A DNA stretch of 64,000 bases, taken from assembly GCA_021414205.1 (NCBI GenBank), contig JAIOOW010000002.1:89520-153519 (forward strand), written 5' to 3'. Made by a program: the position numbers and the translations under genes. The notes under the pieces are model-generated. The model was not told where the DNA came from, did not search any database, and saw nothing but the letters and a program-made list of their open reading frames with translations. Positions 3,476-39,598 of the stretch are shown in pieces (positions within the stretch are counted from its first letter, which is position 1; each line of letters opens with the position of its first letter). The stretch is from Candidatus Anderseniibacteriota bacterium (GTDB taxonomy: Bacteria; Patescibacteriota; Andersenbacteria; UBA10190).

Positions 3476-5935
3476 CTATTTTTCAACAACGGCGCCCACT
3501 AACGTGTCGCGCGCTTCATCCCCACGGTAAACGATAGAGGAATCTGAATCAAGAGTAACACCGGAATCTGGCGCATGATCAACAATCCTAAAGCCCTTCG
3601 GGAAGGCGATACTTGCAGATATTGTCGTCCTTTGCTGTCCGGGCTGTTTTACCAACGCAACCGAATATGAAGTAGCAGGATGCAATAGGCTCGGCATAAC
3701 AACTCCATGCGGAATCCTATAATGATACAGAGCAACCGATGTTTGCCCCGGCTTCGTGACCAGCCAATTTGCAAAATACGCATACCCAGATTCGCTGCCA
3801 ATAGTCGTCCCGTTTATCCCGCCATGCTGTTGCTGCTGCCAGTAGGCAATATCCGCATCCGCAGTTAGTTGCAACGTAGTATCTGGGACAAGGGGATGAG
3901 GAACGTCTTTTTCTTGCGTAAACCCTTGCGCATCAAGCAGTACTGCGTTTTTAGGAACAAGCACGCGCTGGTATATAACATTGTCTTTTTGAGACGGATC
4001 CTCTCCTGCTGGATAGGGATAATCAATCTTTTCATCAGGTCCGTGATGGGTTCTTCGAATCGTAGTAACTACATCCACATCTCCGTTTGCAAGTACTGTA
4101 TTGCGCGTGTCTATTTCCTGAGATACAAACTGATCGCTCTTGTGTCCTCCAATATTGGCATTATCGATCATTAAAAATCCTTGAGTATCTTGAGGGATTA
4201 CCCCAGACCAACCCAGATTTTCGACTTCTTGCTGCGCAGATTCGTTCTTGAAATACAGCAAGATATCTTTGTCTGATAGCGAATTCGTAATTGCCGTAAG
4301 AGTCGCCAAGCGATCGGCAGGCTTTGCAGTATCATCAGCTGAAGCAAATAATTTGGACAGCAATATTGGAGTTAGGTCTGCTAGAAACTGCTTTGGCTTA
4401 TTTACCAAATGATCATAATTATACGTAACCTCTCCTTGTGTAACAGTCACAAAATTATCAGCCGTCACATCTACATCGTACCCAGGAACATGGATAGGCC
4501 CAGTTACTGATAATAAATTTTTTATCACATCAGGTGTAAATAAAATCACTCCATCAACCGTAGGGCCGTTTTCCTGCTCCAAGAAGTCGCTGGCTTTTTG
4601 CGCATCCTTTTTATAATCAACAAACCAATTTGAATCCCTCAAATACCAACGATCCGTAATTGGGGTAAGAGGTTCTGGCGGCGCAATAACTGTTTTCAAT
4701 TGCCCATCTCTATCGTAAACGCTTTGCACATCAATATTTTCAACCTTGCCCTTTGAAACATTCACCACTGCCGTACTGCCGATAAACCCGCCCACTGGGC
4801 GCAATTCATCGTTGTTCGCAAACATAATCAGATACTGACGATCTCGATCTGCGCCCAATAACGTGAGCAACGTTCCGCTTTCGGAATTTAAATGATGAAT
4901 AACTGCGAGCAATTTCGGCAACACTGTTTTTAGCGTGATTACCTGGTCTGCTACCTGCTTGGGCAACATTCCCGTAGAAACACCTGCCAGCTGATCATTT
5001 GCAGACGATATATCTTGCTCCGCATTTGCAAGTTCCGGCTGTGCCAGCTTCATCGCATCGGTGAGTGATGTTCCCGTATTTGTTTTTCCAATCATCTGTA
5101 CCGCATTTGCAATATGCTCACCCGCAGAACTAATTTTTATACCGGCAGACAAAAGAGTGGATCCGGATTTAATAGAGCCCGTTACATCCAATACGCTTAA
5201 AATATTTTTATTGCTTGCAAGCGCGCTGTCCATTTCATGCTGAGCCGTTACAAACTCAACGCCAGCAGATGCAAACGAGAGTTTGCTCGCATCGCTGCCT
5301 GTATCCGCCAATGCAGATCCTGCTTTCGTCATATCAGCGATTGCATTTTTTACCCTGCTTTCAACCGATGCAAGCACCTGCATCCCGCGACCGGCTGCTT
5401 GCAGATTCCAAATTGCAAACGATAAAAACGTAAACCCGATAAGCAAGATGATAAGGCCTGGGGTTCGATGCGAAATATTCGGCATTGAGATGCGCGATAA
5501 GCTTGGCGACTTCATCACAGAAGACCTACTTGGCAGAGATACGCCACGATTCAACGACGCTCGAGTAAGACTCGGTGCGCTTTCTTTCAAATTTGCAGTA
5601 CCTGATGATTGAGGGAATCGATAATCGACATCTCGCTCCGCAATAGGCATGTTTCCGAATACCCCAACACTGGAAAATGTATTTTTTGCCTTCTCTTTAT
5701 TTTTTGCGATTATATCAAAGTGGCGCCCACTTGGTTTTCTTTGCCACTTCCCCTTGCTACTCGCACTATCTGCAAGCACATCTTTTTTCTTCCGATAATT
5801 ATATCGAAAAGGATCCGGAGTATCGTTGGGCGGAATGATATCGTACACACTCTCATTATAGCGCGTTCTCGTATGCCCGTATATGCGCCGCTGCCGTACT
5901 GCCTGCCTGAAAACGTTCCGCATTTTGCCGGCCAA
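3476..5935 (-). CDS. DUF4012-domain membrane-anchored protein (start uncertain; the N-terminal ~95 codons overlap the upstream GT gene)
   Basis: ELRPVGGFIGS hallmark motif of DUF4012; single TM (LIILLIGFTFLSFAIW); long Ser/Thr-rich ectodomain. Confidence 0.6.
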   Translation of the reverse strand: MAGKMRNVFRQAVRQRRIYGHTRTRYNESVYDIIPPNDTPDPFRYNYRKKKDVLADSASSKGKWQRKPSGRHFDIIAKNKEKAKNTFSSVGVFGNMPIAERDVDYRFPQSSGTANLKESAPSLTRASLNRGVSLPSRSSVMKSPSLSRISMPNISHRTPGLIILLIGFTFLSFAIWNLQAAGRGMQVLASVESRVKNAIADMTKAGSALADTGSDASKLSFASAGVEFVTAQHEMDSALASNKNILSVLDVTGSIKSGSTLLSAGIKISSAGEHIANAVQMIGKTNTGTSLTDAMKLAQPELANAEQDISSANDQLAGVSTGMLPKQVADQVITLKTVLPKLLAVIHHLNSESGTLLTLLGADRDRQYLIMFANNDELRPVGGFIGSTAVVNVSKGKVENIDVQSVYDRDGQLKTVIAPPEPLTPITDRWYLRDSNWFVDYKKDAQKASDFLEQENGPTVDGVILFTPDVIKNLLSVTGPIHVPGYDVDVTADNFVTVTQGEVTYNYDHLVNKPKQFLADLTPILLSKLFASADDTAKPADRLATLTAITNSLSDKDILLYFKNESAQQEVENLGWSGVIPQDTQGFLMIDNANIGGHKSDQFVSQEIDTRNTVLANGDVDVVTTIRRTHHGPDEKIDYPYPAGEDPSQKDNVIYQRVLVPKNAVLLDAQGFTQEKDVPHPLVPDTTLQLTADADIAYWQQQQHGGINGTTIGSESGYAYFANWLVTKPGQTSVALYHYRIPHGVVMPSLLHPATSYSVALVKQPGQQRTTISASIAFPKGFRIVDHAPDSGVTLDSDSSIVYRGDEARDTLVGAVVEK

Positions 5936-6974
5936 GCAGCTTTAGAGTATTTGCATAATCATCATCCTCCAATACGGCGCTTATCCCTCGAGCAATATCA
6001 TGAGCGCTTTCCGGATTCGCATACCCAGCGCTCTTTTGAAGCAGTTCCGGCATGCTCGAAACATTTGAAGCAACGACGGGCGTTCCGCACGCCTGTGCCT
6101 CAAGTGGCGGTAATCCATACCCCTCATATAAACTTGGGAACGCCATAAGACTTGCCTCTGCATACAACGCCGGCAAAAGCTCATCTGGAACAAAGCCTGG
6201 AAAAACAATATGTTTCGCAAGATTTTTTTCTTGCACATATTCAATCAAATCGCTATAGCCATCTTGATACTTTCCGGTGATAACAAGCGTAGTATCAGGG
6301 TGCGCCTGTAACACTATCTCAAATGCATCAATAAGTCTGAATATATTTTTGTGGCTCATCCATACTCCCACAAAAAGAATGTAGTTATTTTTTGTGTTTA
6401 TATACTCGCGAACTTTTTTCCTGCTATCTTCTGAAATTTCTTGAAAAAATTTCTGTTCCAACCCCTCATAGATAACATCTACTTTTTTAGCTTGAAACGG
6501 CAATAATTGCATATCACGGGCAGTTGTTTTTGAAACGGCAATAACACTTCGAGCATTCTTTACCGCACTTGCAAACACGTATTCATACCCAACTTGCTGC
6601 AATAATGACTGCCGTTTCTGCCCAGGAAAAATAAATCGTGTAATATCATGAATCGTTACGATATATGGTTTTTTGTATAGCACCGGGACATTAAAATGCG
6701 CAAAATGAACTACGTCAATATTTTTCAAGTTATCTAATTGCTGCAAAAACATTGTCTGTTCTTTCAAAGAATAATAGCTTGGCTCCACGCCGATATATTC
6801 GAATATATTATTCGTATCCCCTAATTCGGTTCGAATTACTTCTTCCTGCCCCTCTGGAACAAGTAGTGTAAAGTGGTGCCCGCGCTGATTGTCATAATAT
6901 TCAAATGCCAGATTCCGAATATATCGGCCGATCCCTGTCCAATTCCATGCCCTGGCGTCTAGTGCGATACGCAT
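5856..6974 (-). CDS. Glycosyltransferase family 1 (GT4)
   Basis: MRIALDARAW...GIGRY N-terminus and C-terminal EGYGLPPLEAQACGTPVV motif. Confidence 0.8.
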   Translation of the reverse strand: MRIALDARAWNWTGIGRYIRNLAFEYYDNQRGHHFTLLVPEGQEEVIRTELGDTNNIFEYIGVEPSYYSLKEQTMFLQQLDNLKNIDVVHFAHFNVPVLYKKPYIVTIHDITRFIFPGQKRQSLLQQVGYEYVFASAVKNARSVIAVSKTTARDMQLLPFQAKKVDVIYEGLEQKFFQEISEDSRKKVREYINTKNNYILFVGVWMSHKNIFRLIDAFEIVLQAHPDTTLVITGKYQDGYSDLIEYVQEKNLAKHIVFPGFVPDELLPALYAEASLMAFPSLYEGYGLPPLEAQACGTPVVASNVSSMPELLQKSAGYANPESAHDIARGISAVLEDDDYANTLKLLGRQNAERFQAGSTAAAHIRAYENAL

Positions 6975-6994
6975 AGAAAAAGCGTATCACGAGA

Positions 6995-7050
6995 ATTTTT
7001 AGAAAAGAAAAGAACCCCTTCACGCATTCTCAAATGATGAGAATGAGGGT
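6995..7050 (-). terminator. Hairpin plus U-tract terminator downstream of the 7087-7740 gene
   Basis: CATTCTCA-AATGA-TGAGAATG within a longer imperfect stem, then a TTCTTTTCTTTTCT-like U-rich tract on the minus strand; second hairpin GGAACA-TTTC-TGTTCC at 7058-7073. Confidence 0.45.
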
Positions 7051-7086
7051 TCGTACGGGAACATTTCTGTTCCAATTGCGCAACCT

Positions 7087-7740
7087 TTATGCAGCCACAT
7101 CTGCTTCGCAACGAACTGGAAGGAGCTCGATCGAATCGGCCAGAAAGCGCAGTTCCATTTCTGCTGCCAAGGCGACTTTGTCAGACGCTTTGCCGCTCCG
7201 TTCACCACGCGGCCACACCATAATTGAACGACCAGTAGCCGGATCAATAAGCGGGGTGCGCGCCGTCATGTTCACCATGACGGCAAACTCACCTTCGACA
7301 AGCTCATGGTCAACAAACAACGGATTGATATAGGCTTGCGTTGCCCACATCGATTCTTGAAGCATCGCCCCGAGCATTAGGCGAACCTGGTCCCGAATGT
7401 TGATGAAAGCTGGCTTTGGTTCGGCGAATTCCTTTCTCGCAAACACAAACCGAACGATGTACGCAGGCTTGCCTCCACCGCTTGCTGGCCTCGGCTGGTA
7501 GAATGCGTCCACCAGGACGTACCCAAGCCCATCAAGCTCTGCCAACGCATCAGCAACACCGACATCCTGAGTTGGAGTTATAAACTCCTGGCCAGTCGCT
7601 GAATTACTCCGCGAACCTTGTTGTGCGGGCAATGCACGAATGAGCGCTGGAATCAACGCTTCGTTCGTAAACCGAAACTGCAGGCCAACTGTTCGCACTG
7701 ATTGACCAATGCCACCTACGCTCTGATTCTGGACTTGCAC
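7087..7740 (-). CDS. Hypothetical protein, compositionally atypical (GC-rich, Ala-rich); GTG start
   Basis: 217 aa ORF; AAGGAG RBS 7 nt before GTG; own promoter and terminator; no family recognised. Confidence 0.55.
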   Translation of the reverse strand: MQVQNQSVGGIGQSVRTVGLQFRFTNEALIPALIRALPAQQGSRSNSATGQEFITPTQDVGVADALAELDGLGYVLVDAFYQPRPASGGGKPAYIVRFVFARKEFAEPKPAFINIRDQVRLMLGAMLQESMWATQAYINPLFVDHELVEGEFAVMVNMTARTPLIDPATGRSIMVWPRGERSGKASDKVALAAEMELRFLADSIELLPVRCEADVAA

Positions 7741-7802
7741 GACTGTTCTCCTTGTAAAAAACGTGCTATCAAACCGAAAATCAAGACATCAACACTTTCA
7801 TC

Positions 7803-7831
7803 ATAATATTACATAAATTGTATTTTGTCAA
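7803..7831 (-). promoter_or_regulatory. Sigma70-like promoter TTGACA-N17-TATTAT for the 7087-7740 gene
   Basis: Minus strand reads TTGACAaaatacaatttatgtaaTATTAT; RBS AAGGAG downstream. Confidence 0.5.
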
Positions 7832-7843
7832 TATTATTCTGTT

Positions 7844-8959
7844 TTAGGCAACTTTCTCCAAAATATCAGCCACTTTACTTGCAGATTGTTCCCACGAGTA
7901 TTTTTCTAAAATCTGCTTACGAACGTTGTGCGGCACGCGCTTGGGGGTGCGCAATAATTCGGCAAGAACTAAGGCTAAATGGGGAGTGTTGTATGGGTCA
8001 ATTAACGTTGCCCACTGACCTACTACTTCCGGAAGTGAAGAATTAAACGAAACGACTACCGGTGTTCCAGCTAATAGCGCCTCAAGAGGCGGAAAGCCGA
8101 ATCCTTCATAAAAACTTGGATATATGAATAAGTCTGCAGCAGCATATAATGCGCCCTTGTCCTGCTCTTCTACGAAACCGATCATATGAATCTTGTGCTT
8201 GTAATGCGACACCGAGATTGCATCTATAATTTCGCGAGATTTCCACCCGCTCTCTCCCGCCAATACTAAATGGTGAGGAATGCGGTCTGCAATCGCAGAG
8301 AACGCTTCAATAATTGCTGGAATATTTTTTCTCGGCTCGAGCGCACCAAAAAATAAAATAAAATGTTCCGGCAAATGATACGCACTTTTAATTCGATGCA
8401 AATCAACCTGCGACACAACCGGAGTGCTTGGAACCCCTGGATATACAACAGAAATATTGTTTTCAGAAATACCATAATGTTCCTGAAGATCGTTTTTCGT
8501 ATGCTCTGAAACGGCAATAACATAGCTGGATTTTTGAAATAACTTCTTTGGTTGCATGGCTATATGCCATATTTTTCGTTTCCACGTTAAAAATTCCGGA
8601 AACCGTTCATACGAAATATCGTGCGCAACTGTAACGAACGGCTTTCCTGACGACAAGGGAACCAGCCGAGGATTGGGAACGAAGAAAACATCTATTGGAA
8701 CCGGCAGCAATTTGTCCCATTTTGGAAAACCGAATAGTAGCTGCAATGTGTTGAATATCTTATTTGGATAGCGAAATGCATGAACTGAAACGTTTTCTCG
8801 AAACGTTGGCAATTGCACTGCCTTTGCAGCATTGTAAAACAAATGATAGTGATGACGCGGCCGAACGCGAGAAAGCGTATCGATCATTCTGGTTGTATAT
8901 TCTTCTACTCCGGTATGTCGCCCCTCCATTAACGACCGTGCATCAATGGCAATATGCAT
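7844..8959 (-). CDS. Glycosyltransferase family 1 (GT4)
   Basis: MHIAIDARSLMEGRHTGVEEYT N-terminus; EGFGFPPLEALLAGTPVV motif; start chosen at ATG 8959, 4 nt after the upstream stop. Confidence 0.8.
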   Translation of the reverse strand: MHIAIDARSLMEGRHTGVEEYTTRMIDTLSRVRPRHHYHLFYNAAKAVQLPTFRENVSVHAFRYPNKIFNTLQLLFGFPKWDKLLPVPIDVFFVPNPRLVPLSSGKPFVTVAHDISYERFPEFLTWKRKIWHIAMQPKKLFQKSSYVIAVSEHTKNDLQEHYGISENNISVVYPGVPSTPVVSQVDLHRIKSAYHLPEHFILFFGALEPRKNIPAIIEAFSAIADRIPHHLVLAGESGWKSREIIDAISVSHYKHKIHMIGFVEEQDKGALYAAADLFIYPSFYEGFGFPPLEALLAGTPVVVSFNSSLPEVVGQWATLIDPYNTPHLALVLAELLRTPKRVPHNVRKQILEKYSWEQSASKVADILEKVA

Positions 8960-8963
8960 AGAA

Positions 8964-9599
8964 TTAGTCCTCACCCCTTTTAAGTGCTTCATAAAAAAGC
9001 ACAATAAGCGCAGCTATAGCAAGCGCGAACACGAGAGTAATTAACGCGATAGGCAGCACTGCAACACGAACAGTTCCCGTCCAGGCATTTGTCTGAGTAA
9101 GAGAAAATTGAGCCGTGTCTTTATTCTTTTTGTTATAGTCGCTCACCGCGTTTTGGGTAACGCTATCAACGGCGCGTGCCAATGCTTCAGCATTGCTTTT
9201 TGAAGCATCGACAACTGTTACCTGAACGAGCTGAGACGCCGCCTTTTCGGCCTTCACCTGCTTTGCAAGATCAATAGGATCCTGAGATGCAAGAGGAATA
9301 TTTGCAGAAGCGTATGCGCTTACAATTTGCTCCGGGGACATAATAAGCGATGCCAATGTTGCAGAAAACAGTTCAGTGCCGGAAATTGAATAATATCCAT
9401 CATATCGAAAAGCAGGAGAAGCATCGCGCTGTTGCTGCGCGATCATATATGAAAAATGAACCTCATAGGAAGGCGGTGTTTTACTCGCAACCGCATACGC
9501 AATACCAAAAGCTAGTACGCCGACAAGTACCATCATGGGCAAATTGCGCCATAATGCCATAATTGACTGCTCTACATCTTTTTGAGGACTTACATGCAT
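8964..9599 (-). CDS. Wzz/polysaccharide co-polymerase-like protein (two terminal TM helices)
   Basis: N-terminal and C-terminal TM segments around a hydrophilic Ala/Gln-rich middle; sits inside the glycan cluster. Confidence 0.4.
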   Translation of the reverse strand: MHVSPQKDVEQSIMALWRNLPMMVLVGVLAFGIAYAVASKTPPSYEVHFSYMIAQQQRDASPAFRYDGYYSISGTELFSATLASLIMSPEQIVSAYASANIPLASQDPIDLAKQVKAEKAASQLVQVTVVDASKSNAEALARAVDSVTQNAVSDYNKKNKDTAQFSLTQTNAWTGTVRVAVLPIALITLVFALAIAALIVLFYEALKRGED

Positions 9600-12218: not shown

Positions 12219-12551
12219 GCTGATGGATGGATAATCGCCCGTAACAGGGAGGAAAGTCCGGACACCACAAAAAGGGTGACAGGTAACGCCTGCCCCCTCG
12301 CCCTAAAAAGCAAGGGAGGGATAGTGCAACAGAAACATACAGCCCCTCCTCGGAGGAGCAATGGTGAAATCGTGAGGTAAGAGCTCACGCCCTGTATAGG
12401 TAACTATACAGGGGTGAAAACCCCACCTGGTGCAACCTCAAGTCGACCCGCCTTAAAACGGGTCAGGTAGAGGGCAAAGATTCTAGTAGCGATACTAGAA
12501 CAAGACAGATGATTATCTTCAATGACAGAATCCGGCTTACAGTCCATTAGC
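12219..12551 (+). ncRNA. rnpB: RNase P RNA, bacterial type A
   Basis: GGGAGGAAAGTCCGGACACCACA, GGTAACGCCTG, GTGAAATCGTGAGGTAAGAGCTCACGC and ACAGAATCCGGCTTACAG conserved blocks; P1 GCTGATGGA pairs with TCCATTAGC. Confidence 0.9.
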
Positions 12552-12560
12552 ATATATGCA

Positions 12561-28793: not shown

Positions 28794-30082
28794 AGGAATC
28801 CTTCGTATTCACGCATTGTAAGCTGGGATTCGATTTGTTTCATCGTCTCCAGCACAACAGAGACAACGATCAGTAGCGCAGTTCCTCCAATCGTAAGCGT
28901 TCGAAGGCCGGTAAATGCCTGCACAATTAATGGCAACACGGCAATTGCCCCTAAGAAGATTGCACCAGCTAACGTAATCCTTCGCACCACATATTCTAAA
29001 TAATTTTTCGTTTGCTTGCCTGGGCGAATACCAGGAATAAATCCGCCCTGCTTCTGCACATTTTCAGCAATTTGATCCGGATCGAACGTAACCGACGTAT
29101 AAAAATATGTAAACAATACTACGAGAATAAAGTAGAAAATTCCGTAGAACCATTGATTTTGAAACAACGAAACAACGTATTGAGCAGCAGCGGCAACTTT
29201 CGCATTGCTTGCTGCCACGAAGAAGTTCGCCACAATTCCGGGAAATAGCATAATGGAAAGCGCAAAGATGATTGGCATCACCCCTGCCTGGTTCACGCGA
29301 AGCGGTAAGTGAGTAGATGTTCCTCCGAGCATTCTATTTCCGCGAACCTGTTTTGCATAATTCACCGGAATAGACCGCTGACCTTCTGTAATCACTACAA
29401 CACCTGCGATAACAACAAGGGAAACAAGCGCGAATGCTCCATACGTAAACAACTGATCAGGAGTCCACGTTGATATAAGCTGCGTAATCGCGCCAGGCAA
29501 TCTACTAATAATACCCACGAAAATAATAATGGAAATTCCATTACCGAATCCTTGCTTAGAAATAAGCTCACCAATCCACATTAAGAAAATCGTACCCGCA
29601 GCAAGCGCAACGAGCGTCAGCACCATTTCGTATGGCGTAAACGTCAGGCTTGCAACGCCAGGAGTTCCGCTATGAGTAAGCAAGTTTAAAAATCCAAACC
29701 CCTGAAGAGCAGAAAATGGCACCGCAAGCATGCGTGTCCATTGGTTAATCTTTCGTCGGCCAGCCTCCCCTTCTTCTTTCTGCATCTCTTCCAATCTTGG
29801 AAAAATCATCGTTGATAATTGAATGACAATAGATGCTGTAATATAGGGCCCGAGTCCAAGCATTACTATTGAAAGGCGAGACAATCCTCCACCGGAAAAG
29901 ATGTCTAACAATCCGAACAATTGATTGCCTTGAAATAATTGCGCCAAGCTTTCCTTAGGCACTCCCGGAACAGGAATAACGGCAGCTATTCGAAATACGA
30001 GAATAAGCCACAATACAATAAGCAACTTCTTCCGAAGCTCCGGAATTCGTACGATCGCCGTAAATCGCGATAAGTCAATCAC
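28790..30082 (-). CDS. secY: Preprotein translocase SecY
   Basis: 430 aa, 10 TM; GLGPYITASIV motif. Confidence 0.9.
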   Translation of the reverse strand: MIDLSRFTAIVRIPELRKKLLIVLWLILVFRIAAVIPVPGVPKESLAQLFQGNQLFGLLDIFSGGGLSRLSIVMLGLGPYITASIVIQLSTMIFPRLEEMQKEEGEAGRRKINQWTRMLAVPFSALQGFGFLNLLTHSGTPGVASLTFTPYEMVLTLVALAAGTIFLMWIGELISKQGFGNGISIIIFVGIISRLPGAITQLISTWTPDQLFTYGAFALVSLVVIAGVVVITEGQRSIPVNYAKQVRGNRMLGGTSTHLPLRVNQAGVMPIIFALSIMLFPGIVANFFVAASNAKVAAAAQYVVSLFQNQWFYGIFYFILVVLFTYFYTSVTFDPDQIAENVQKQGGFIPGIRPGKQTKNYLEYVVRRITLAGAIFLGAIAVLPLIVQAFTGLRTLTIGGTALLIVVSVVLETMKQIESQLTMREYEGFL

Positions 30083-30534
30083 GCCGTTTTTCGTTCAATC
30101 AGTTCTATTGTTCCGCCATTTTTTTCAACAACAGCCCGCGCTCCTGGCGTGCATGCATGAACTCGAACAGTATACTTGCCTTTCAATTCTCCATTTCCGA
30201 TAAGCTTTACGAGATCGGTTCTCTTTGGAACATATCCGCGCTTATGGAGTTGGCCTGGTCCTACAATGCTTCCATCCTCAAATGCTCGAAGTACCCCTAA
30301 TGTAATCGCAATCGGTTTCTTAACCTGAGAAGGATTGATCTGCTTAACACCTCGACCCTTTGGAAAACGCATGTACAGTGGAGTTTGTCCGCCTTCAAAT
30401 CCTTTTTTCGCGCTATATCCAGCACGAGACTTTTGGCCTTTTTGCCCACGACCAGACTTGCCACCATTACGGCCATGTCCTCGGCCTAGGCGATTCTTTT
30501 TCTTTGTTATAGCTGGAAGTGTAAATACTGACAT
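30079..30534 (-). CDS. rplO: Ribosomal protein L15
   Basis: LGRGHGRNGGKSGRGQKGQKSR. Confidence 0.9.
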   Translation of the reverse strand: MSVFTLPAITKKKNRLGRGHGRNGGKSGRGQKGQKSRAGYSAKKGFEGGQTPLYMRFPKGRGVKQINPSQVKKPIAITLGVLRAFEDGSIVGPGQLHKRGYVPKRTDLVKLIGNGELKGKYTVRVHACTPGARAVVEKNGGTIELIERKTA

Positions 30535-30543
30535 ATGATTATA

Positions 30544-31008
30544 TTATACTAGCTCTTGAAAAGCCTTGATAGTTGCTCGCGCATTGCTGATTCTATTCGA
30601 AGAACCGTATCGCTTAGATACCAAGTCGCGAATTCCAACAAGGTCAGCAACTGTTCGAATAATACCGCCTGCAATAACTCCCGTTCCAGGACGAGCTGGT
30701 TTTAATAAAACTTTTGCTCCTTTAAACTTTGCGACTACCTCATGTTTGATCGTACCATCGACAACAGGGATTGTTACAACTCTCTTCATCGCACGAGCCT
30801 GCGCCTTTTGGATTGCCTGCTGAACGTCTCGACTCTTACTAATCCCAAGCCCGATCTTGCCCTGCCTATCTCCAACAACTACCGTTGCACGGAATCTGAA
30901 TCTGCGACCACCCTTTACTACGCGCACGACGCGAGAAATCTCTAACACTTCGTGTCCGAATTGGTTGTCATCAAGTTGTCCTGGTGTAAACGCCATAATG
31001 TAATTCAA
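30544..31008 (-). CDS. rpsE: Ribosomal protein S5 (likely start at MAFTPG, 30996)
   Basis: RVVKGGRRFRFRATVVVGD; directly abuts rplO with no L30 gene between. Confidence 0.9.
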   Translation of the reverse strand: MNYIMAFTPGQLDDNQFGHEVLEISRVVRVVKGGRRFRFRATVVVGDRQGKIGLGISKSRDVQQAIQKAQARAMKRVVTIPVVDGTIKHEVVAKFKGAKVLLKPARPGTGVIAGGIIRTVADLVGIRDLVSKRYGSSNRISNARATIKAFQELV

Positions 31009-31010
31009 TA

Positions 31011-31346
31011 TTAAAACTTGAGTCCGCCTTCTCGCATTGCCTCAGCCAATGCCTTAACTCGCCCGTGGTATCGATATCCACCTCGATCAAAGACAATAAC
31101 GGAAATGCCTTTTTCTTGGGCAGATTTTGCTAAATCTAGTCCTAGCTGCGTAGCAATTGCCGTCTTATTTGTTTTGCCATCAGCAATCTTTCGCGCAGAT
31201 ACAAGCGTCACACCCTTTGCATCGTCAATAATCTGCACTTCAAGCCCTTTAATGCTTCGATATACACATGCTCGAGGACGAGCAGCAGTTCCAACCATTC
31301 GTGATCGGATTTTGCCATGTCTTCGGTTTCTTCGTAGGTGATTCAT
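31011..31346 (-). CDS. rplR: Ribosomal protein L18
   Basis: Sequence and operon position. Confidence 0.85.
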   Translation of the reverse strand: MNHLRRNRRHGKIRSRMVGTAARPRACVYRSIKGLEVQIIDDAKGVTLVSARKIADGKTNKTAIATQLGLDLAKSAQEKGISVIVFDRGGYRYHGRVKALAEAMREGGLKF

Positions 31347-31358
31347 AGTAATTATGTA

Positions 31359-31901
31359 TTATGCTGCAGAACCTACAATTTTACCAACTTTTCTGCGAAC
31401 ATGTTCGCCAACATATCGGATACCCTTGCCCTTATATGGTTCTGGCGGTCGAACTTTTCGAATGTCCGCTGCAATCTGCCCAACCATATATGCATCAAAC
31501 CCTTCAACGGTAACGATTTCTTTTTCCACAGCAAATGTAACCCCTTCAGGCGCCTCGACAATAACCGGATGAGAATATCCAACAAGCAACTGAAGATTCT
31601 TGCCCTGCATGGATGCGCGGTACCCTACTCCTTGTAATTCTAGCTGTTTCTTAAACCCAGTAGAGACACCCTCTACTGCATTAGATAAAATTGCTCGCAT
31701 TGTTCCCCATAGCGCTGAAGATTTCTTCGTTTTTCGCGCAATAGAACACGTAAGGACATTATCTTGAACAGCAACACCGATAACGGAGTGCACCGGTACA
31801 GTAATTTCACCCTTAGGTCCTTTCACAGTAACGTCAGCACCATTAATCGTGACAGTTACGCCAGCGGGGATTACTATTTCTTTTTTACCAATTCGTGACA
31901 T
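31359..31901 (-). CDS. rplF: Ribosomal protein L6
   Basis: Two-domain L6 signature; operon position. Confidence 0.85.
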   Translation of the reverse strand: MSRIGKKEIVIPAGVTVTINGADVTVKGPKGEITVPVHSVIGVAVQDNVLTCSIARKTKKSSALWGTMRAILSNAVEGVSTGFKKQLELQGVGYRASMQGKNLQLLVGYSHPVIVEAPEGVTFAVEKEIVTVEGFDAYMVGQIAADIRKVRPPEPYKGKGIRYVGEHVRRKVGKIVGSAA

Positions 31902-31907
31902 AGGAGA

Positions 31908-32294
31908 TTACCAAATAGCGCAAATAAGTTCTCCGCCCACTTTCTTACCTCGAGCATGCTTTTCATCCATAAGCCCCTCAGAAGTAGACACGATGATCAT
32001 GCCGTTATCTTGCTGAGAATATGGCAGATTATCAGAACCTACATACACTCGTCGCCCTGGCTTACTAATTCTCTTTGCGCCAGCAATCTTTGGCGTTTCA
32101 TCATCTTCGTATGCAAGAGAAACAACTAGTTTTGCAATTGGTGTTTCCTGAAGTCGAACATCGCCAATCAAGTTCTCTTTCTTAAGAAAATCTAGAAAAT
32201 TCTTTGCAAATTTTGAATACGGCACAGCCACGCGTTCTTTACCAACACGCTGTCCGTTTAATAGTATTGTTAAAATGTTTGCTACAGAGTCCAT
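31908..32294 (-). CDS. rpsH: Ribosomal protein S8
   Basis: Operon position; 128 aa. Confidence 0.85.
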   Translation of the reverse strand: MDSVANILTILLNGQRVGKERVAVPYSKFAKNFLDFLKKENLIGDVRLQETPIAKLVVSLAYEDDETPKIAGAKRISKPGRRVYVGSDNLPYSQQDNGMIIVSTSEGLMDEKHARGKKVGGELICAIW

Positions 32295-32304
32295 AATCGT
32301 AAAA

Positions 32305-32490
32305 TTACCAAGATGATTTTCTAATTCCAGGAACTACCCCAGCCTCCGCTTGTTCTCGGAAGCAAATACGGCACATTCCAAAATCCCCCATGTATCCGCG
32401 AGGGCGTCCGCAGAGCTTGCATCGATTTCGAACACGGGTCGAAAATTTCGCCGGTCTCTTGCTCTTTGCAATGGATGATGTTTTTGCCAT
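32305..32490 (-). CDS. rpsZ: Ribosomal protein S14, type Z (zinc-binding)
   Basis: 61 aa, CKLCGRP...CRIC. Confidence 0.9.
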
Positions 32491-32521
32491 AGGTCGTTAG
32501 ATAGTGAGAATACTGTATTTG

Positions 32522-33079
32522 TTATTTTTCATCAAGTTCATCTACTCCGCGGAACGGGAATCCGAGGGCTCGAAGCATCTGTTCTGCCGTTTGATTATCT
32601 TTCGCCGTACTTACAAATGTAATACCTACGCCGAAGATAACGTCTGTTTTATCAGCATGAATTTCCGGGAACGCAAGCTGTTCCGTAAGACCAATGCTCG
32701 CATTTCCATATCCATCCAATACTTTCAATGAAAGTCCTCGGAAATCACGAACTCGAGGAAGAGTAACGTCGACAAATCGAGTAATAAAGTCTTCCATACG
32801 CTTTCCGCGAAGTGTAACACTGTATCCAACAAGATTGCCCTCTCGAACGTTGAATCCTGCGATAGATTTCTTTGCGTGAGTTTCTTTTGGCTTTTGACCG
32901 GTAATAGCAGCCAAGTCTTTTTGAATAGCTTCAACGTATTGTTTATTGTCTCGATTCTTTCCAACACCAACAGTCACCATTACTTTCGTAATACGGGGAA
33001 CTGCATGAATATTTTCAATCTTCATCGCTTCAGCAAGCTTTTTTGTTGTAGGGGTAATAACGGGCATAGGATTATTCAA
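32522..33079 (-). CDS. rplE: Ribosomal protein L5
   Basis: Operon position; 185 aa. Confidence 0.85.
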   Translation of the reverse strand: MNNPMPVITPTTKKLAEAMKIENIHAVPRITKVMVTVGVGKNRDNKQYVEAIQKDLAAITGQKPKETHAKKSIAGFNVREGNLVGYSVTLRGKRMEDFITRFVDVTLPRVRDFRGLSLKVLDGYGNASIGLTEQLAFPEIHADKTDVIFGVGITFVSTAKDNQTAEQMLRALGFPFRGVDELDEK

Positions 33080-33407
33080 TTACTGCATTACATTGCTTGC
33101 ACGTGCGCTGGCGAACGCCGTTTTCTCGAGTGATAGAAACCTTTGTTCCTTTTTTGCATGCTGCGCAAATAACTTGAACATTCGCAAGAGGAATAGGAGC
33201 AGAAATGCTTACGCGTTGGCCCTTCTGGCCTGACTGACGAGGCTTCACATGCTTAAACACGGTATTGAGCCCTTCAATAACAACACGATCTTCTTGCGGA
33301 AGAACAGCAACAACTTTTGCCTTCTTGCCAGCATCTTTTCCGCGAAGAACGCGAACGGTATCGCCTGTTTTAATTTTTGGAGTAATCATAGTCATAGGGT
33401 TTACCAA
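33072..33407 (-). CDS. rplX: Ribosomal protein L24 with C-terminal CxxC...CxxC zinc ribbon
   Basis: KOW motif [18 protein letters not shown]; C-terminus CAACKKG...CKQC. Confidence 0.85.
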
Positions 33408-33772
33408 ACTTCAGAAGCTAGTGAAACAATCTTTTGAAAACCTCGCGCTCGAAGCTCTCGAGCAATTGGCCCGAATACGCGAGTTCCGATCGGTTCTTTT
33501 GATTCTTTATTAACAATCACGGCTGCATTGTCATCGAACCGAATAGCAGTACCGTCTGGGCGCTTGTGCTCCTTGCGCACACGAACAATCACTGCGCGAA
33601 CAATATCACCTTTCTTTACAGAGGCGCGAGGTTCTGCAACCTTAACTGCAGCAACAACCACGTCTCCAATATATGCATACCGTCGATTTGTGGATCCCAA
33701 AATACGGATGACCTTAATCATCTTTCCGCCGGAATTGTCCGCAACTACTAATTTAGCTTCTTCCTGAATCAT
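33401..33772 (-). CDS. rplN: Ribosomal protein L14
   Basis: [17 protein letters not shown]. Confidence 0.9.
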
Positions 33773-34035
33773 ACCGTTTTCTTAATTACTACCCAACGTT
33801 TGCGCTTTGAAAGCGGTCGGGATTCTTCAATTAACACTGCATCTCCAACAGTAATCTCGTTGCTTTCATCGTGAGCCAAATATCTGCTCGTTCGATTCAT
33901 ACGCTTTCCGTAGAGTGGATGAGCCACTACGCGAACGATTTCAACAGAAACTGTCTTTGCCCCAGACTTGCGCACCACAGTACCCGAAAGCTGTCGCTTT
34001 CTTGTGCCTTCCTGTGTTGTATCTGGAGTACTCAT
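33769..34035 (-). CDS. rpsQ: Ribosomal protein S17
   Basis: 88 aa; operon position. Confidence 0.85.
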
Positions 34036-34073
34036 AAGAAATTACTATGAATGAATAAGTGTAAAAACGCAAG

Positions 34074-34265
34074 CTATTTAGCTTCTTTTGCCTTAATTGC
34101 CGTAAAAATTCGAGCAACATCCCCTCGAAGACCTTTGAGCTGTGCAAAATTCTTCTCTTTCCCCGTGGCAACGTTCTGCGCCATAGCGAACAGCTCTTGG
34201 CGAGCGTTCGTCAATTTTACAGATAATTCCTCGAAAGATAGTTGTGCGAGTTCTTGCATGTTCAT
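34074..34265 (-). CDS. rpmC: Ribosomal protein L29
   Basis: 63 aa; MNMQELAQLSFEEL. Confidence 0.85.
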   Translation of the reverse strand: MNMQELAQLSFEELSVKLTNARQELFAMAQNVATGKEKNFAQLKGLRGDVARIFTAIKAKEAK

Positions 34266-34269
34266 AGTC

Positions 34270-34680
34270 TTAAATCTTCTTTACAAACTTGGTTTTAATA
34301 GAAAGCTTCTGAGCTGCTAGGCGAAGCCCTTCGCGAGCCGTTGCTTCGTCCATTCCGTCTACTTCGAATACGATACGTCCTCGACGAACGACTGCCACGA
34401 AGTGATCAACGGACCCCTTTCCTTTTCCCATCGGAGTTTCTGCACCCTTTTGAGTAATAGGCTTATCCGGGAACACGCGAATCCATACTTTTCCGCTTCG
34501 CTTTGCATGGCGAGTAACAGCGCGGCGAGCAGCTTCTAGCTGGCGCGCAGAAATCCATCGGCTTTCCATCGCTTTCAACCCATACTGTCCGAAATCAACA
34601 GAAAGAGAACCTTTGGAAGCTCCGCGAACGGACCCCTTTTGGTGCTTTCGATGTTTTACTTTTCGAGGAATAAATGCCAT
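34270..34680 (-). CDS. rplP: Ribosomal protein L16
   Basis: [12 protein letters not shown]. Confidence 0.9.
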
Positions 34681-34690
34681 ATCAGTTCAA

Positions 34691-35431
34691 TTATTTCTTC
34701 ACCTTATCAGCCAAAGACGGACGAGTGCGTCGAGGCACAGCCTTTTCTTTCACTGGCGCACCGATAGCCTCTCCTGGCTTATCAGTATTTTCCGTTTCAT
34801 ACTCACCTCTGTTAATCCACACCTTTACTCCGATTGTTCCGAATGTGGTAAATGCTGTTTTTGTAGCATATGAAATATCTGCTCTGAATGTGTGCAATGG
34901 AACATTTCCATCTGCAAGCCATTCTCTACGAGCGATATCAGCACCATTAAGGCGTCCAGCAATCGCGATACGCACTCCGCGCGCACCTGCCTGCATAGAA
35001 CGCTGCACAGATTGCTTCAACACTCTCCTATAGGGCATACGTCGCTCAATCTGATCAACTACTTGAGTTGCAACAGCAGTTGCGTCAGTGTCCGGATTTC
35101 GAACCTCTTGAACGTTAATGCGTACACGGATCTCGTTACCCAAAAACTTCTTCAAATCTTTTTGAATTTTTTCGATTCCGCTTCCGCCTCGGCCGATTAC
35201 CATTGCAGGACGAGACGTGTGCACGGTAAGAGCAATTTCCTTTGCTTGTCGCACAACTTCAACTCGAGAAATAGATGCTGATCGCAAGCTTTTCTTTAAA
35301 TACGTTCGGATCTTAACATCCTGAATCAAGTTCGTACTGAAATCTTTTGGATTATCTGAAAACCACTTCGCATCCCAGTTATGGAGAATGTTACCGATTC
35401 GTAATATATTTGGATTTGTTTTTCGTCCCAT
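34691..35431 (-). CDS. rpsC: Ribosomal protein S3
   Basis: KH domain and S3 C-terminal domain; 246 aa. Confidence 0.9.
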   Translation of the reverse strand: MGRKTNPNILRIGNILHNWDAKWFSDNPKDFSTNLIQDVKIRTYLKKSLRSASISRVEVVRQAKEIALTVHTSRPAMVIGRGGSGIEKIQKDLKKFLGNEIRVRINVQEVRNPDTDATAVATQVVDQIERRMPYRRVLKQSVQRSMQAGARGVRIAIAGRLNGADIARREWLADGNVPLHTFRADISYATKTAFTTFGTIGVKVWINRGEYETENTDKPGEAIGAPVKEKAVPRRTRPSLADKVKK

Positions 35432-35453
35432 AGGAAATTATATAGTCTAGATA

Positions 35454-36044
35454 TTATCCAATACTCTTTCTGCGATGTGTCTTCTTGTCCCCACCCTTTT
35501 GATTCATTTTAATCTTACCTGATGCTAACTGCTTTTTGTCTTGAATAGTTTCAACACTGCGTTCTTCCGTCGCATCATGTTTATGTAAATGCTCCTCAGA
35601 AACCACTTGCTCTTCTTCCTGCTCCTTCTGCTGGGATTGCATAAATTCATTTGCAGAAACAGTCTTAATAGATTCAGCTTTCTTGGCTTTCTTCGTGTCT
35701 GCTTTTACAACAGCGTCGCCCTCTACTACAACCGTAACATGAGCAGTGCGCTTTAAAATGGCATGAGCCATACCCTTGGAAACAGGGTTGAATCGCTTCA
35801 TTACCAATCCTTGATTAATAAGAACGCTAGAAATTTTCAAACTGTTCTTATCAAGTTCGTGCGTATTTACAGCATTCGCAACAGCGCTTTTTACTACATG
35901 CAATAAAATTTCAGGAGCTTTGCCTGTAGCAAACATAAGCTGGCTGATTGCCCTATCTGATGCCATTCCTTGAACCAACCGTGCGTATGGACGGATTTTT
36001 CGAGGAGACATTCGAGCGTGTTTTTGTGTAGCAGAAACTTTCAT
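35454..36044 (-). CDS. rplV: Ribosomal protein L22 with ~85 aa charged C-terminal extension
   Basis: L22 core in the first ~110 aa; 196 aa total. Confidence 0.85.
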   Translation of the reverse strand: MKVSATQKHARMSPRKIRPYARLVQGMASDRAISQLMFATGKAPEILLHVVKSAVANAVNTHELDKNSLKISSVLINQGLVMKRFNPVSKGMAHAILKRTAHVTVVVEGDAVVKADTKKAKKAESIKTVSANEFMQSQQKEQEEEQVVSEEHLHKHDATEERSVETIQDKKQLASGKIKMNQKGGDKKTHRRKSIG

Positions 36045-36050
36045 AGGAGA

Positions 36051-36362
36051 TTATTTCTTAGCAGCTGCTGAAGCTGCCTTAGGAGCAGATTCAACTTCCT
36101 TTTGAAGCTTTCCACCATGTCGAACAAATTTTCGAGTCATTGAAAATTCTCCGAGCTTATGACCAACCATATCCTCAGTGATCATTACCGGAATATGTTC
36201 TTTTCCATTATGCACGCCAAATCGAAAACCAACCATCTCCGGGAAAATAGTGGATCTGCGGCTCCATGTCTTAATAACAGTGCGGTCGCCCTGTTTCAAA
36301 TTCTTCACTTTTGCTAGCAAGTGAGCGTCAATGAATGGTCCTTTTTTAAGTGATCGTGACAT
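36051..36362 (-). CDS. rpsS: Ribosomal protein S19
   Basis: [12 protein letters not shown]. Confidence 0.9.
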
Positions 36363-36368
36363 AATAGG

Positions 36369-37211
36369 TTATTTTTTCTTCTTACTCTTTCTTCGTTCTA
36401 ATATAAATTGATTCGAATACCTGTTCGGCTTGCGAGTCTTAACTCCGTTCGCATGCTTTCCCCATTTCGTCTTTGGGTACTTCAATCCAATAGACTGAGC
36501 ACCTTCTCCACCTCCATGAGGATGGTCAACGGGGTTCATTACTTTTCCTCGTACGTTCGGACGCTTTCCAAGGCGACGATTTCGACCAGCTGAACCAATT
36601 GTTTGGAGACGCCAATCTGGATTGCTAACCGAGCCAATTGTGGCATAACATTCCTTAGAAATCAAGCGAACCTCTCCTGATGCCATCTTAATCTGAGCAT
36701 GATCACCCTGCACGTCCATCACCATTCCATATGATCCTGCGGATCGGAATAAGATTCCGCCTCGGCCAGGCATAATTTCTACATTGTGCACAGAAAGCCC
36801 TGGTGTTACGTTCTTTAATTGCATACGGTTACCGTCTTTTTCCGGGGTCTTTTCATCGGCAATCATCATAGATCCTTCAACGGCGCCTGCCCACGCAAGA
36901 ACGTATCTGCGCTCTCCATCCTTATACACAATGCGCGCAAGATATGCCGATCGGTTTGGATCGAATTCAACGTGCTCCACTCGCCCAGGAATGCCAAGCT
37001 TTTCTTGTCCAAAATCTACCATACGAACAGCTCGCTTCACTCCGCCTCCGCGATGTCGTGTCGTAATCTTTCCAGCACTTCCACGTCCGCTTGTAGCAGT
37101 CTTCTTTGTAAGCTTCGCCTTCATCGGCTCACCGCGATACAGATCCGTTCGGTCTACGATCGATGCTTTCTTACGAGCTCCGCGACTTGATTTGTAATGT
37201 TTAATAGGCAT
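36369..37211 (-). CDS. rplB: Ribosomal protein L2
   Basis: 280 aa; GGGEGAQSIGLKYPKTKWGK-like C-terminus. Confidence 0.9.
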   Translation of the reverse strand: MPIKHYKSSRGARKKASIVDRTDLYRGEPMKAKLTKKTATSGRGSAGKITTRHRGGGVKRAVRMVDFGQEKLGIPGRVEHVEFDPNRSAYLARIVYKDGERRYVLAWAGAVEGSMMIADEKTPEKDGNRMQLKNVTPGLSVHNVEIMPGRGGILFRSAGSYGMVMDVQGDHAQIKMASGEVRLISKECYATIGSVSNPDWRLQTIGSAGRNRRLGKRPNVRGKVMNPVDHPHGGGEGAQSIGLKYPKTKWGKHANGVKTRKPNRYSNQFILERRKSKKKK

Positions 37212-37214
37212 AGG

Positions 37215-37643
37215 TTATGCGTGAGATACAACAGCTTGAATATTATCAACTTTTACGTATGCCTTTTTGAACTTATTCGTAACACCTTCCGTAATCCCTC
37301 TTCGGCGAATACGAGGATGAGACAATGCGGTTCGTACAGCAAGTACATGAACGCCATATGTAGCTTCTACCACGCTCGTGATTTGAGACTTCGTAACATG
37401 CGGAAGCACTTTGAATACAGCAGTTCCTTGCGTCTGTTGCATAATGCCTTTTTCGGAAACGACTTCCGTAAGACCGATTAAGCCAGTAGATAGCGCATGA
37501 GTATCAACAGGTGCTTTCTTTTTCTTTGCAGAATCAGCAACTGATTTCAGTTTCTTGTTTCGTACGGGAGCTTTTTTAGCGTCTTTCCCGAGAATTCGTT
37601 TTGATAGTGTAAGAAGTGACATAGGGCCGGTTATATTGAGCAA
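37215..37643 (-). CDS. rplW: Ribosomal protein L23 with Lys-rich N-terminal extension
   Basis: L23 core in the C-terminal ~95 aa. Confidence 0.8.
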   Translation of the reverse strand: MLNITGPMSLLTLSKRILGKDAKKAPVRNKKLKSVADSAKKKKAPVDTHALSTGLIGLTEVVSEKGIMQQTQGTAVFKVLPHVTKSQITSVVEATYGVHVLAVRTALSHPRIRRRGITEGVTNKFKKAYVKVDNIQAVVSHA

Positions 37644-38269
37644 CGATTTTCAATGATAGGAAGAGCTGTTTCATCAACCCACACTTCATGAGCGGATACG
37701 ATATCAGACAACAGCACCTTGTGCGCATATCGAACATGCACTGTAGGCACGTTGCGCATTGCGCGCTCTACTTGCTTGTGAGACTCATCAAGAATGATCA
37801 AGAGCCCAGCTTTGCCAGCAATGTCTTTTGCAACATCTTTCGTCTTTACCGGCATATCCTTTGGCAATCGCATAATCATCATCGATTCATTCTTTACATG
37901 CATTGCAAGCACTCCTGAAAATGCGCGTCGTCGTTCCTTGAGCTGTGTTTTTCGAACAGTCGGCTTGATACTTCGTGGTCCAAATGTAATTCCACCGCCA
38001 ACCCAAATAGGAGATCGAGTTGATCCGTGTCGAGATCGTCCTGTTCCTTTTTGCTTCCACGGCTTTCGTCCTCCGCCTTGTACCTCAGAACGTTCTTTTG
38101 TGTGCGCCTTTCGAATACGCATTCGCTTGCTTGTAGTATGAATTGCTCGCGCAATTAATTCCGGAGTATCAACACCAATAATGTATGCAGGAATAGCAAC
38201 CGTGTCCTTAGAAGCTTTGGATCCAAGTTCTCGTACTGGCAACGTTTTTGTTGTAGTTTTGGTAGCCAT
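37631..38269 (-). CDS. rplD: Ribosomal protein L4
   Basis: 212 aa; operon position. Confidence 0.85.
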   Translation of the reverse strand: MATKTTTKTLPVRELGSKASKDTVAIPAYIIGVDTPELIARAIHTTSKRMRIRKAHTKERSEVQGGGRKPWKQKGTGRSRHGSTRSPIWVGGGITFGPRSIKPTVRKTQLKERRRAFSGVLAMHVKNESMMIMRLPKDMPVKTKDVAKDIAGKAGLLIILDESHKQVERAMRNVPTVHVRYAHKVLLSDIVSAHEVWVDETALPIIENRCSI

Positions 38270-38271
38270 AA

Positions 38272-38880
38272 TTATTTCGATTCAATACCACGGATAGAAA
38301 CGATGCTGCCGCGCGGCCCTGGCACTGCGCCTTTCACAGCAACAAGATTGTGCTCAGCATCAACCTGCACAATTTCCAAATTCTTTACGGTTACCTGATC
38401 AGCACCCATTCGGCCTGCCATGCGTCGTCCTTTTACTACGTGCTGCGGGAATCGACCTCCGATAGAACCTGGTCGGCGAAGTACGTGTCTATGACCGTGA
38501 GATGCTGGACCTCCTGCAAAATGATGACGCTTTACCACACCCTGATTTCCTTTTCCTTTTGAAACGCCAGTTACTTCGATTGCATCGCCTTGTGCAAATT
38601 GGTCAACACCAACAGATTCGATATCTGCAGGAAATTCTCCTTTAAATTCTTCTCGTTTTGCGAACACTTCTTTATATGCGTTCGGGGTTCGCTTCTCTCC
38701 AAGTTTCGCTCCCTCTTTCTTTGGGAGTGCTAATTGGACAGCAGCGTATCCATCTTTTTCTACTGTTCTGCGAATAGTAACGGTATTAGGAAGCGCGGAA
38801 ATTAGGGTAACAGGAATAACATCTCCTTCGGGAGAGAATACCTGAGACATGCCGATTTTTCGTCCTAGAAGCGCTTTCAT
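38272..38880 (-). CDS. rplC: Ribosomal protein L3
   Basis: MKALLGRKIGMSQVF. Confidence 0.9.
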   Translation of the reverse strand: MKALLGRKIGMSQVFSPEGDVIPVTLISALPNTVTIRRTVEKDGYAAVQLALPKKEGAKLGEKRTPNAYKEVFAKREEFKGEFPADIESVGVDQFAQGDAIEVTGVSKGKGNQGVVKRHHFAGGPASHGHRHVLRRPGSIGGRFPQHVVKGRRMAGRMGADQVTVKNLEIVQVDAEHNLVAVKGAVPGPRGSIVSIRGIESK

Positions 38881-39409: not shown

Positions 39410-39598
39410 CGCTATTCTTCCTTTCGAAATACTTATCTTTTCGGACAAGAGCCCAGAAAAGAATCAAGGGGAACGCCAATGGCCAGATCCTAAACAAAAA
39501 ATCAAGCGTATCTTCATCGATCTCCATGATCTCATACTCCCTCTTCTTGAGGATAAAACGAGCTATTTGCACATATACCCGTTGTATATTGCTATATC

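Follow-up and report, generated by a model that had tools for sequence, protein, structure and literature searches.

Phage morons, reportedly described by Juhala/Hendrix et al. in 2000, are said to be autonomous promoter-gene-terminator units that lie between genes adjacent in related phages and often have a deviant base composition. A unit of similar build is found in a 64,000-nt stretch of DNA from Candidatus Anderseniibacteriota bacterium (Patescibacteriota; Andersenbacteria; assembly GCA_021414205.1, contig JAIOOW010000002.1, positions 89,520 to 153,519). This whole stretch is referred to below as the window, and coordinates are those of the window unless another locus is named. The unit is a cassette of ~870 bp on the minus strand, which carries a gene for a 217-aa protein and lies in a cluster of surface-glycan genes. 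Like a phage moron, it consists of a single open reading frame (ORF) with its own predicted promoter and terminator, separates two genes that adjoin each other in relatives, and is deviant in composition. Unlike a moron, it is not part of a phage or prophage but is flanked by glycan-synthesis and housekeeping genes (Bac_transf, GT4, DUF4012, MurJ and LepA) and has no PHROG match. Furthermore, the family to which the gene belongs is cellular, lineage-wide and rich in guanine and cytosine (GC) everywhere, so that its composition marks no foreign source.

Raised GC content at third codon positions (GC3) in bacteria, and GC-biased gene conversion or selection for GC as its drivers, were reportedly the subject of work by Hildebrand et al. 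in 2010, Raghavan et al. in 2012, and Lassalle et al. in 2015. The cassette gene resembles genes under GC-biased conversion or GC selection in showing a symmetric weak-to-strong synonymous shift that is independent of tRNA-type preference, and in the signs of recombination at its locus. It differs from them in that the effect is tied to one small family over many distant genomes and is not a genome-wide correlate of recombination, and in that the family adds mRNA folding beyond that due to composition. The GC3 excess of this family bears on the debate between selection and biased gene conversion as drivers of GC content in bacteria.

Patescibacteria account for a large share of bacterial diversity and have many conserved genes without known function. 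Members of the present family have already been deposited as hypothetical proteins (K8Q97_00425, WEA04_01300 and AAB631_03205), with no name, no Pfam or NCBIfam model and no solved structure. They match the window protein with E values of 1e-137 to 1e-14, are ~200–220 aa long and have the same motifs, and no difference from it was seen. Literature searches yielded no account of either the family or its GC phenomenon. In the reading that we prefer and consider probable, the locus is a moron-like, self-contained cassette for an uncharacterised Patescibacteria protein, the GC-rich mRNA of which is actively maintained by selection and the gene of which is probably highly expressed.

Insertion into the glycan operon and expression signals

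The order of the surface-glycan cluster is Bac_transf, GT4, a gene for a 211-aa protein, GT4, the cassette gene, GT4, DUF4012 and MurJ. The cassette was found in the same slot in the window and in the Andersenbacteria loci L001/L002, L005/L006, L007/L008/L014 and L003. Four contigs with a cassette-free syntenic cluster (L030–L033), chosen via a homologue search with the GT4 gene downstream of the cassette, were examined for comparison. All four contain the GT4-to-MurJ cluster, three of them with Bac_transf upstream and two with LepA downstream. The two GT4 genes are adjacent in each, separated by gaps of 18, 18, 129 and 53 nt, and none of the four clusters retains any trace of the family gene. 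Thus, the cassette is an insertion into the glycan operon in one Andersenbacteria sublineage. An initial annotation of the gene, made from the sequence alone, had described an autonomous, compositionally distinct unit within a glycan-synthesis operon and had proposed looking for its presence or absence in syntenic clusters; this description is supported.

The whole inserted unit, comprising promoter, leader, coding sequence and terminator, extends from 6975 to 7843 (minus strand) and fills the interval that separates the stop codon of the upstream GT4 gene from the start codon of the downstream one. The upstream glycosyltransferase gene is located at 7844–8959 and the downstream gene at 5856–6974, both on the minus strand, and their products match Pfam family Glycos_transf_1 with E values of 1e-28 and 1.5e-35, respectively. 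The downstream gene starts 26 nt past the T-run of the cassette terminator. Mechanical ORF calling gave the upstream gene as 7844–9004 (386 aa, TTG start), which overlaps the preceding gene by 41 nt; as orthologues are 371 aa long, translation probably begins at the ATG near 8959. Neither noteworthy direct or inverted repeats at the flanks of the cassette, nor a tRNA gene in the window, nor integrase or phage genes nearby were detected. In the cassette-free genome GCA_001817035, the 129-nt spacer between the GT4 genes (L032:5872–6000), which is the exact site of the insertion in the window, is GC-rich and includes long palindromes (CCCTTCTCCCTC...GAGGGGAG).

The promoter, ribosome-binding site and terminator of the cassette are sequence predictions. 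The sigma-70-type promoter at 7803–7831 (minus strand) consists of a −35 element TTGACA (7831–7826), a 17-nt spacer and a −10 element TATTAT (7808–7803), and scores 11/12 against the consensus. Only seven sites on both strands of the 64-kb window reach a score of at least 11/12, this one among them, and its −35 element is unchanged across five orthologous loci. The 5' leader would be ~55 nt long (7741–7796, minus strand), as judged from the position of the −10 element, and contains the ribosome-binding site AAGGAG at 7748–7753, 7 nt ahead of the GTG start codon. AGGAG is invariant in orthologues. When folded and compared with shuffled sequences, the leader showed no significant structure (z +0.58), which leaves the ribosome-binding site open. 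A regulatory leader was considered and ruled out by the unstructured 5' untranslated region and the lack of an Rfam match. The coding sequence (CDS) at 7087–7740 (minus strand) specifies 217 aa from the GTG start to a TAA stop, as supported by ORF calls and homologues.

The intrinsic terminator at 7001–7052 (minus strand) consists of a hairpin (7052–7012) with an outer stem GAACCC.../...GGGTTC and an internal loop, followed by the T-rich run TTTTCTTTTCT at 7011–7001. A simple terminator scanner missed this hairpin because of the internal loop in the stem. The 92 nt 3' of the stop codon fold with an energy of −27.9 kcal/mol (z −3.5), a value equalled by none of 200 shuffles. The outer stem and the T-run are invariant in the five orthologous loci; in L003 the inner stem differs in sequence and is still complementary. 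The reading frame, its GTG start and AAGGAG, the promoter at 7803–7831 and the hairpin with its U-tract, all of which had been noted in the initial annotation, are thereby confirmed. Taken together, the near-consensus promoter, the unstructured leader with a strong Shine-Dalgarno sequence, the 217-codon gene and the intrinsic terminator constitute one self-contained expression cassette; most likely, this is a strongly expressed housekeeping-type gene that can relocate as a unit. The division of a glycan operon by a strong promoter and terminator could also make the locus usable for studying operon transcription in Patescibacteria.

The protein family and its gene neighbourhood

The 217-aa protein is 100% identical to hypothetical protein K8Q97_00425 of Candidatus Andersenbacteria bacterium, which comes from a metagenome-assembled genome, and the orthologues at the same slot in other assemblies share 83, 76, 75 and 59% protein identity with it. 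Among five orthologues, substitutions are concentrated at third codon positions, and the ratio of nonsynonymous to synonymous substitution rates (dN/dS) is 0.06–0.32. An exhaustive phmmer search revealed 427 representative homologues at E≤1e-3, 229 of them at E≤1e-10. Nearly all are 195–235 aa long and align over the full length (residues ~10–210), and the length is conserved down to an identity of about 30%. A profile of the family recovers the window protein at 3.8e-67. Every homologue with an organism name is from Patescibacteria (Andersen-, Nealson-, Berkel- and Taylorbacteria, WWE3, Paceibacterota and Minisyncoccales). No paralogue of the gene is present within the window.

The initial annotation could not match the protein to a family, and searches of Pfam, NCBIfam, PHROGs, PADLOC and PDB sequences likewise gave no match for it. 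Other members have only scattered sub-threshold matches; the best PHROG or PADLOC match, of one distant member, has an E value of 0.032, and PDB sequence and profile searches gave a best E value of 0.047. A defence-system or phage protein was rejected on the basis of the PADLOC and PHROG results, with that one distant member as the only exception.

Two alignments showed that Q20, F21, G49, D77, R96, F99, W131, N138, P139, N156 and R160, all of which are carried by the window protein, are invariant or nearly so in the family. The polar residues of this kind are Q20, R43, D77, R83, R96, N138, N156 and R160; in neither alignment do they include Cys, His, Ser or Lys of a catalytic type. The family motifs are LQFSFSN, GYxLVDAF, VRFVFAR, AMWRVRAYxNP and SINxEARxP. 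An AlphaFold2 model built from a 31-sequence alignment has a predicted local distance difference test (pLDDT) score of 91.5 and a predicted template modelling (pTM) score of 0.87. It is a single α+β domain with a large antiparallel sheet, in which residues 50–142 follow the order β-α-β-β-α-β and residues 129–162 form a long hairpin. Ferredoxin-like and RRM-like α+β domains (the RAMP proteins Cas5 and Cmr1, HUH Rep endonucleases, ribosomal protein S6 and ACT domains) were compared with the model as candidates for the fold. In a fold search, the model had no match among solved (PDB) or viral (BFVD) structures. Structure prediction, which the initial annotation had suggested as a check, thus gave a confident model, and its fold may be previously unseen, as judged against the PDB and BFVD structures.

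The window protein has no transmembrane segment of sufficient length, and its isoelectric point is 5.1 (family median 6.8). From its sequence, the product is a soluble cytoplasmic protein of an uncharacterised family of Patescibacteria (the candidate phyla radiation). The absence of conserved catalytic-type Cys, His, Ser and Lys, together with the polar invariants and the fold, is a weak indication that the protein serves in binding or as a scaffold, and not as a classical hydrolase or transferase. It might be made in abundance and have a housekeeping-type function of this kind; nucleic acids, phosphorylated compounds or other anionic molecules are possible ligands. As the family is widespread in the radiation, has expression signals that are among the strongest in the window and has a confident model without a PDB or BFVD match, it is a tractable target for further study.

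Association with glycan genes is restricted to the Andersenbacteria subclade. Elsewhere, members adjoin genes for FtsH, UvrC with D-Ala-D-Ala ligase, RNase III with sigma-70, or ABC transporters, and further neighbours include AlaRS, TIM, UppS, FtsK, L27 and S1 proteins. The 95 neighbours in 19 other loci represent 127 Pfam families, none of which occurs more than three times, and GT2 only twice. No conserved partner gene was found among them: the small ORFs adjoining the members are unrelated to each other, and no Pfam family recurs. For the window protein, no transferase match was found in Pfam, NCBIfam or the fold search. The product is therefore unlikely to be an enzyme that modifies the glycan, and the location of the gene within this cluster is probably fortuitous. 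The suggestion in the initial annotation that the protein modifies the glycan made by this cluster is not supported, given the unrelated housekeeping neighbours elsewhere and the lack of invariant residues of a catalytic type.

GC excess of the gene family and its origin

With a GC content of 54.0%, as compared with 44.8±2.8% for window ORFs, the cassette gene ranks highest among the 68 ORFs of at least 100 aa (~3.3 standard deviations above the mean). The contrast with its neighbours, which the initial annotation had pointed out, was confirmed in sliding windows (0.36–0.44 in the flanks and 0.51–0.54 inside the ORF). GC3 is 0.523, as compared with 0.400±0.057 for window ORFs, and GC at first codon positions is 0.656. 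The protein had been described as rich in Ala, Gly and Arg; this is correct for Ala (13.0%, background 9.2%) and Arg, and not for Gly, the content of which (7.9%) is ordinary. Lys is reduced (2.3%, background 4.9%), and Ile and Asn are few. The same protein encoded with the background codon usage of the window would have a GC content of 0.500 and a GC3 of 0.421. Thus, about half of the excess is due to amino-acid composition and about half to synonymous choice.

The third base shifts symmetrically (A −0.086, T −0.076, C +0.076, G +0.086), and does so evenly over the whole gene. The ribosomal-protein genes of the window (block 30079–38880, minus strand) have a low GC3 of 0.30–0.40, as compared with the window average of 0.40. 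Hence, the GC3 excess is not ordinary tRNA-matched codon bias. A translational codon bias was also rejected on the ground that a putative EF-Tu gene, like the ribosomal-protein genes, is below the cassette gene in GC3. The ribosomal-protein block, which is presumed to be highly expressed, leans to A/T-ending codons, opposite to the cassette gene.

The excess is common to the family. A scan of species-representative genomes showed the homologue to be above the other ORFs of its locus in both GC and GC3 at all 16 loci (for example, GC3 of 0.776 versus 0.377, 0.626 versus 0.327, and 0.738 versus 0.443), and in a separate set of eight loci it was higher in six. At 22 of 23 loci, which span many Patescibacteria lineages, the GC3 excess is positive, and it averages +0.17 over the whole set (Wilcoxon p = 1.7e-6). 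GC3 of the homologue correlates with the background GC3 of the host (r = 0.63, slope 0.70, 23 loci); the gene thus tracks the composition of each host with a constant upward offset. Between Andersenbacteria orthologues, the excess persists at saturated synonymous sites (synonymous substitution rate, dS, >2 or not computable). Hence, it is not a decaying legacy of a donor but is maintained in place, and high GC is an intrinsic, actively maintained property of the gene family and not the leftover of a foreign donor.

Of the features by which a foreign islet may be recognised, the cassette has one, its absence from the same site in relatives (L030–L033). Its composition is not that of a donor, decaying and foreign to resident homologues, since the excess is present at 22 of the 23 loci and at dS >2, and neither named homologues outside Patescibacteria nor mobility hallmarks were found. 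A compositional anomaly of this sort, which would usually be taken as evidence of horizontal transfer, belongs in this case to the gene as a maintained trait, and this matters for methods of island detection.

The folding of each CDS was compared with that of 40 within-gene synonymous-codon shuffles, which preserve the protein, codon usage and GC3. The z score of the minimum free energy averages −2.4 for 22 family genes, with 12 of them below −2; in 18 genes taken from these loci as controls the average is −0.75, with three below −2 (Mann-Whitney p = 4e-4). This folding excess favours selection as the driver of high GC. The signal is one of more structure in general and not of one particular RNA fold, and an embedded conserved RNA structure in the mRNA was rejected on the basis of an alifold energy of 0 for 24 members. 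Two of the controls, L012:10053–10718 (faint Pfam match to the RpoA C-terminal domain, z −3.7) and L012:9231–9965 (RNase III, z −2.5), also over-fold, and excess mRNA structure is thus not unique to the family in that Andersenbacteria genome.

Promoters scoring at least 10/12 are present at 16 of the 23 family loci, five of them with 12/12. In most lineages, family members are flanked by AGGAGG sites and hairpin/T-run terminators, and the gene is a monocistronic unit everywhere. A local 'domestication' of the window gene by host expression signals, as proposed in the initial annotation, is contradicted by the occurrence of such signals throughout the family. In the preferred reading, selection for a GC-rich, strongly folded and hence long-lived mRNA of a highly expressed gene would keep the GC3 shift. 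The main alternative driver would be GC-biased gene conversion via recurrent recombination. A more specific form of the preferred reading is possible but rather unlikely: the product would be an abundant cytoplasmic protein specific to Patescibacteria and of unseen fold, whose gene is kept radiation-wide at a GC3 much above that of the host genome, and with more mRNA structure, by selection on the transcript, for example for an exceptionally long-lived mRNA in the presence of minimal RNA-decay machinery, and moves among chromosomal sites as a moron-like cassette.

Several observations weigh against the preferred reading. The GC excess is small or absent in two loci (L009 and L011). The window gene itself (z −0.93) and its closest orthologues (z +0.02 and −1.32) show no excess folding, so that the argument from mRNA structure is derived from other lineages, and no consensus RNA structure was found across the family in a protein-guided codon alignment of 24 members. 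It is from the consensus expression signals that the gene is judged to be probably highly expressed. Past the terminator, no promoter is recognisable that would belong to the downstream GT4, DUF4012 and MurJ genes themselves, and the cassette may have a lineage-specific functional link to the glycan operon. In a neighbour-joining tree of concatenated cluster proteins, the genomes with the cassette fail to form a monophyletic group: L001 and L007 share a clade with the window, followed by L030 and L031 without the cassette, and L003 with the cassette branches outside. Such a distribution requires that the cassette was precisely lost twice or was transferred by recombination through the GT4 genes on its two sides. 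Counting in favour of the preferred reading, dS of the first 140 codons in the clade of the window, L001 and L007 (0.175 and 0.81) matches that of the neighbouring genes (0.24–0.48 and 0.78–0.95), and there the gene thus co-diverges with the operon. The 3' tract at 7040–7300 (minus strand), which comprises the C-terminal ~70 codons and the first ~45 nt past the stop, has an identity to the closest relative L001 of only 0.70–0.85, as compared with 0.90–0.96 around it. The C part differs from L001 with dN 0.28 and dS 0.79, and the N part with dN 0.026 and dS 0.175. This divergence resembles either mosaicism due to recombination or a spell of rapid change in the lineage of the window. The patchy presence of the cassette and the mosaic 3' end point to recombination and favour gene conversion over selection as the GC driver.

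Accordingly, the same cassette and family may owe their GC excess to GC-biased gene conversion at a recombination hotspot, with no selection on the mRNA. The symmetric and uniform weak-to-strong shift at third positions fits this explanation, as do the patchiness on the cluster tree, the 3' tract with both dN and dS raised, and the differing location of the gene among lineages. We regard it as possible but rather unlikely, since conversion acting on composition only does not predict the excess of strongly folded genes in the family (12/22 versus 3/18 controls with z below −2), and why one small gene should be a hotspot in many distant lineages lacks an explanation. Less probable is that the gene now functions within the glycan operon of the subclade, its product being, for example, a regulator, chaperone or scaffold of the assembly machinery, and that the strong promoter of the gene also drives the downstream GT4, DUF4012 and MurJ by read-through. 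Its position is stable in at least five genomes with 59–83% protein identity, and the 26 nt from the terminator to the next GT4 start contain no recognisable promoter; however, relatives have the same operon without the gene, members elsewhere lack glycan neighbours, and the strong terminator is conserved.

Lower still is the probability of a recent import from a GC-richer foreign donor, fitted with host signals and modifying the glycan of the cluster, as the initial annotation had it. Such an origin would agree with the insertion relative to four syntenic clusters, with the highest GC content among the window ORFs and with the location between glycosyltransferase genes. However, named homologues are all from Patescibacteria, the GC excess is family-wide, follows host GC3 and survives saturation, the expression signals too are family-wide, a glycan context is lacking elsewhere, none of the invariant residues is a Cys, His, Ser or Lys of the catalytic type, and inside the clade the gene and its neighbours diverge in step. 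The combination of foreign donor and glycan modification is thus already largely refuted: of a horizontally acquired gene, the insertion stands, and the GC-richer donor does not, as the excess recurs in nearly all Patescibacteria loci (22/23) and tracks host GC3. As to a spurious ORF in a GC-rich segment that is in fact a structured non-coding RNA or a spacer, its probability is negligible. GC-rich islands in a genome are often RNA genes, and GC-rich DNA holds fewer stop codons; the window itself contains a GC-rich RNA gene, that for RNase P RNA at 12219–12555. Nevertheless, dN/dS far below 1, homologues of conserved length down to ~30% identity and the confident AlphaFold2 model, along with no Rfam match for the cassette region at E≤1 and no consensus RNA structure (alifold energy 0), have already refuted this possibility. 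The case of an unconserved frame, which the initial annotation had named as its own refutation, is likewise excluded by dN/dS of 0.06–0.32 and the 427 homologues. Of these explanations, the maintained moron-like cassette under selection on its transcript remains preferred.

Other features of the window

The gene for the 211-aa protein of the glycan cluster (8964–9599, minus strand) encodes a product with a hydrophobic stretch at each end, resembling a Wzz/PCP-like topology, and without a Pfam match. A counterpart of 197–221 aa occupies the same position in every syntenic cluster examined, with no Pfam match on record.

Bacterial RNase P RNA of class A (12219–12555, plus strand; 230 bits, E = 1.6e-73) accounts for the rise in GC content at 12.0–12.6 kb. 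It is divergent from a promoter scoring 11/12, TTGTCA-16-TATAAT at 12191 (minus strand), which probably drives the glycan operon starting at 12165. Further sigma-70 matches with scores of 11–12/12 in the window are located at 40211, 39627, 15292, 47452 (minus strand) and 47403 (plus strand). The sites at 40211 and 39627 lie just upstream of the short ORFs 39700–40089 and 39053–39448, beside the ribosomal-protein block, and those at 47403 and 47452 form a divergent pair.

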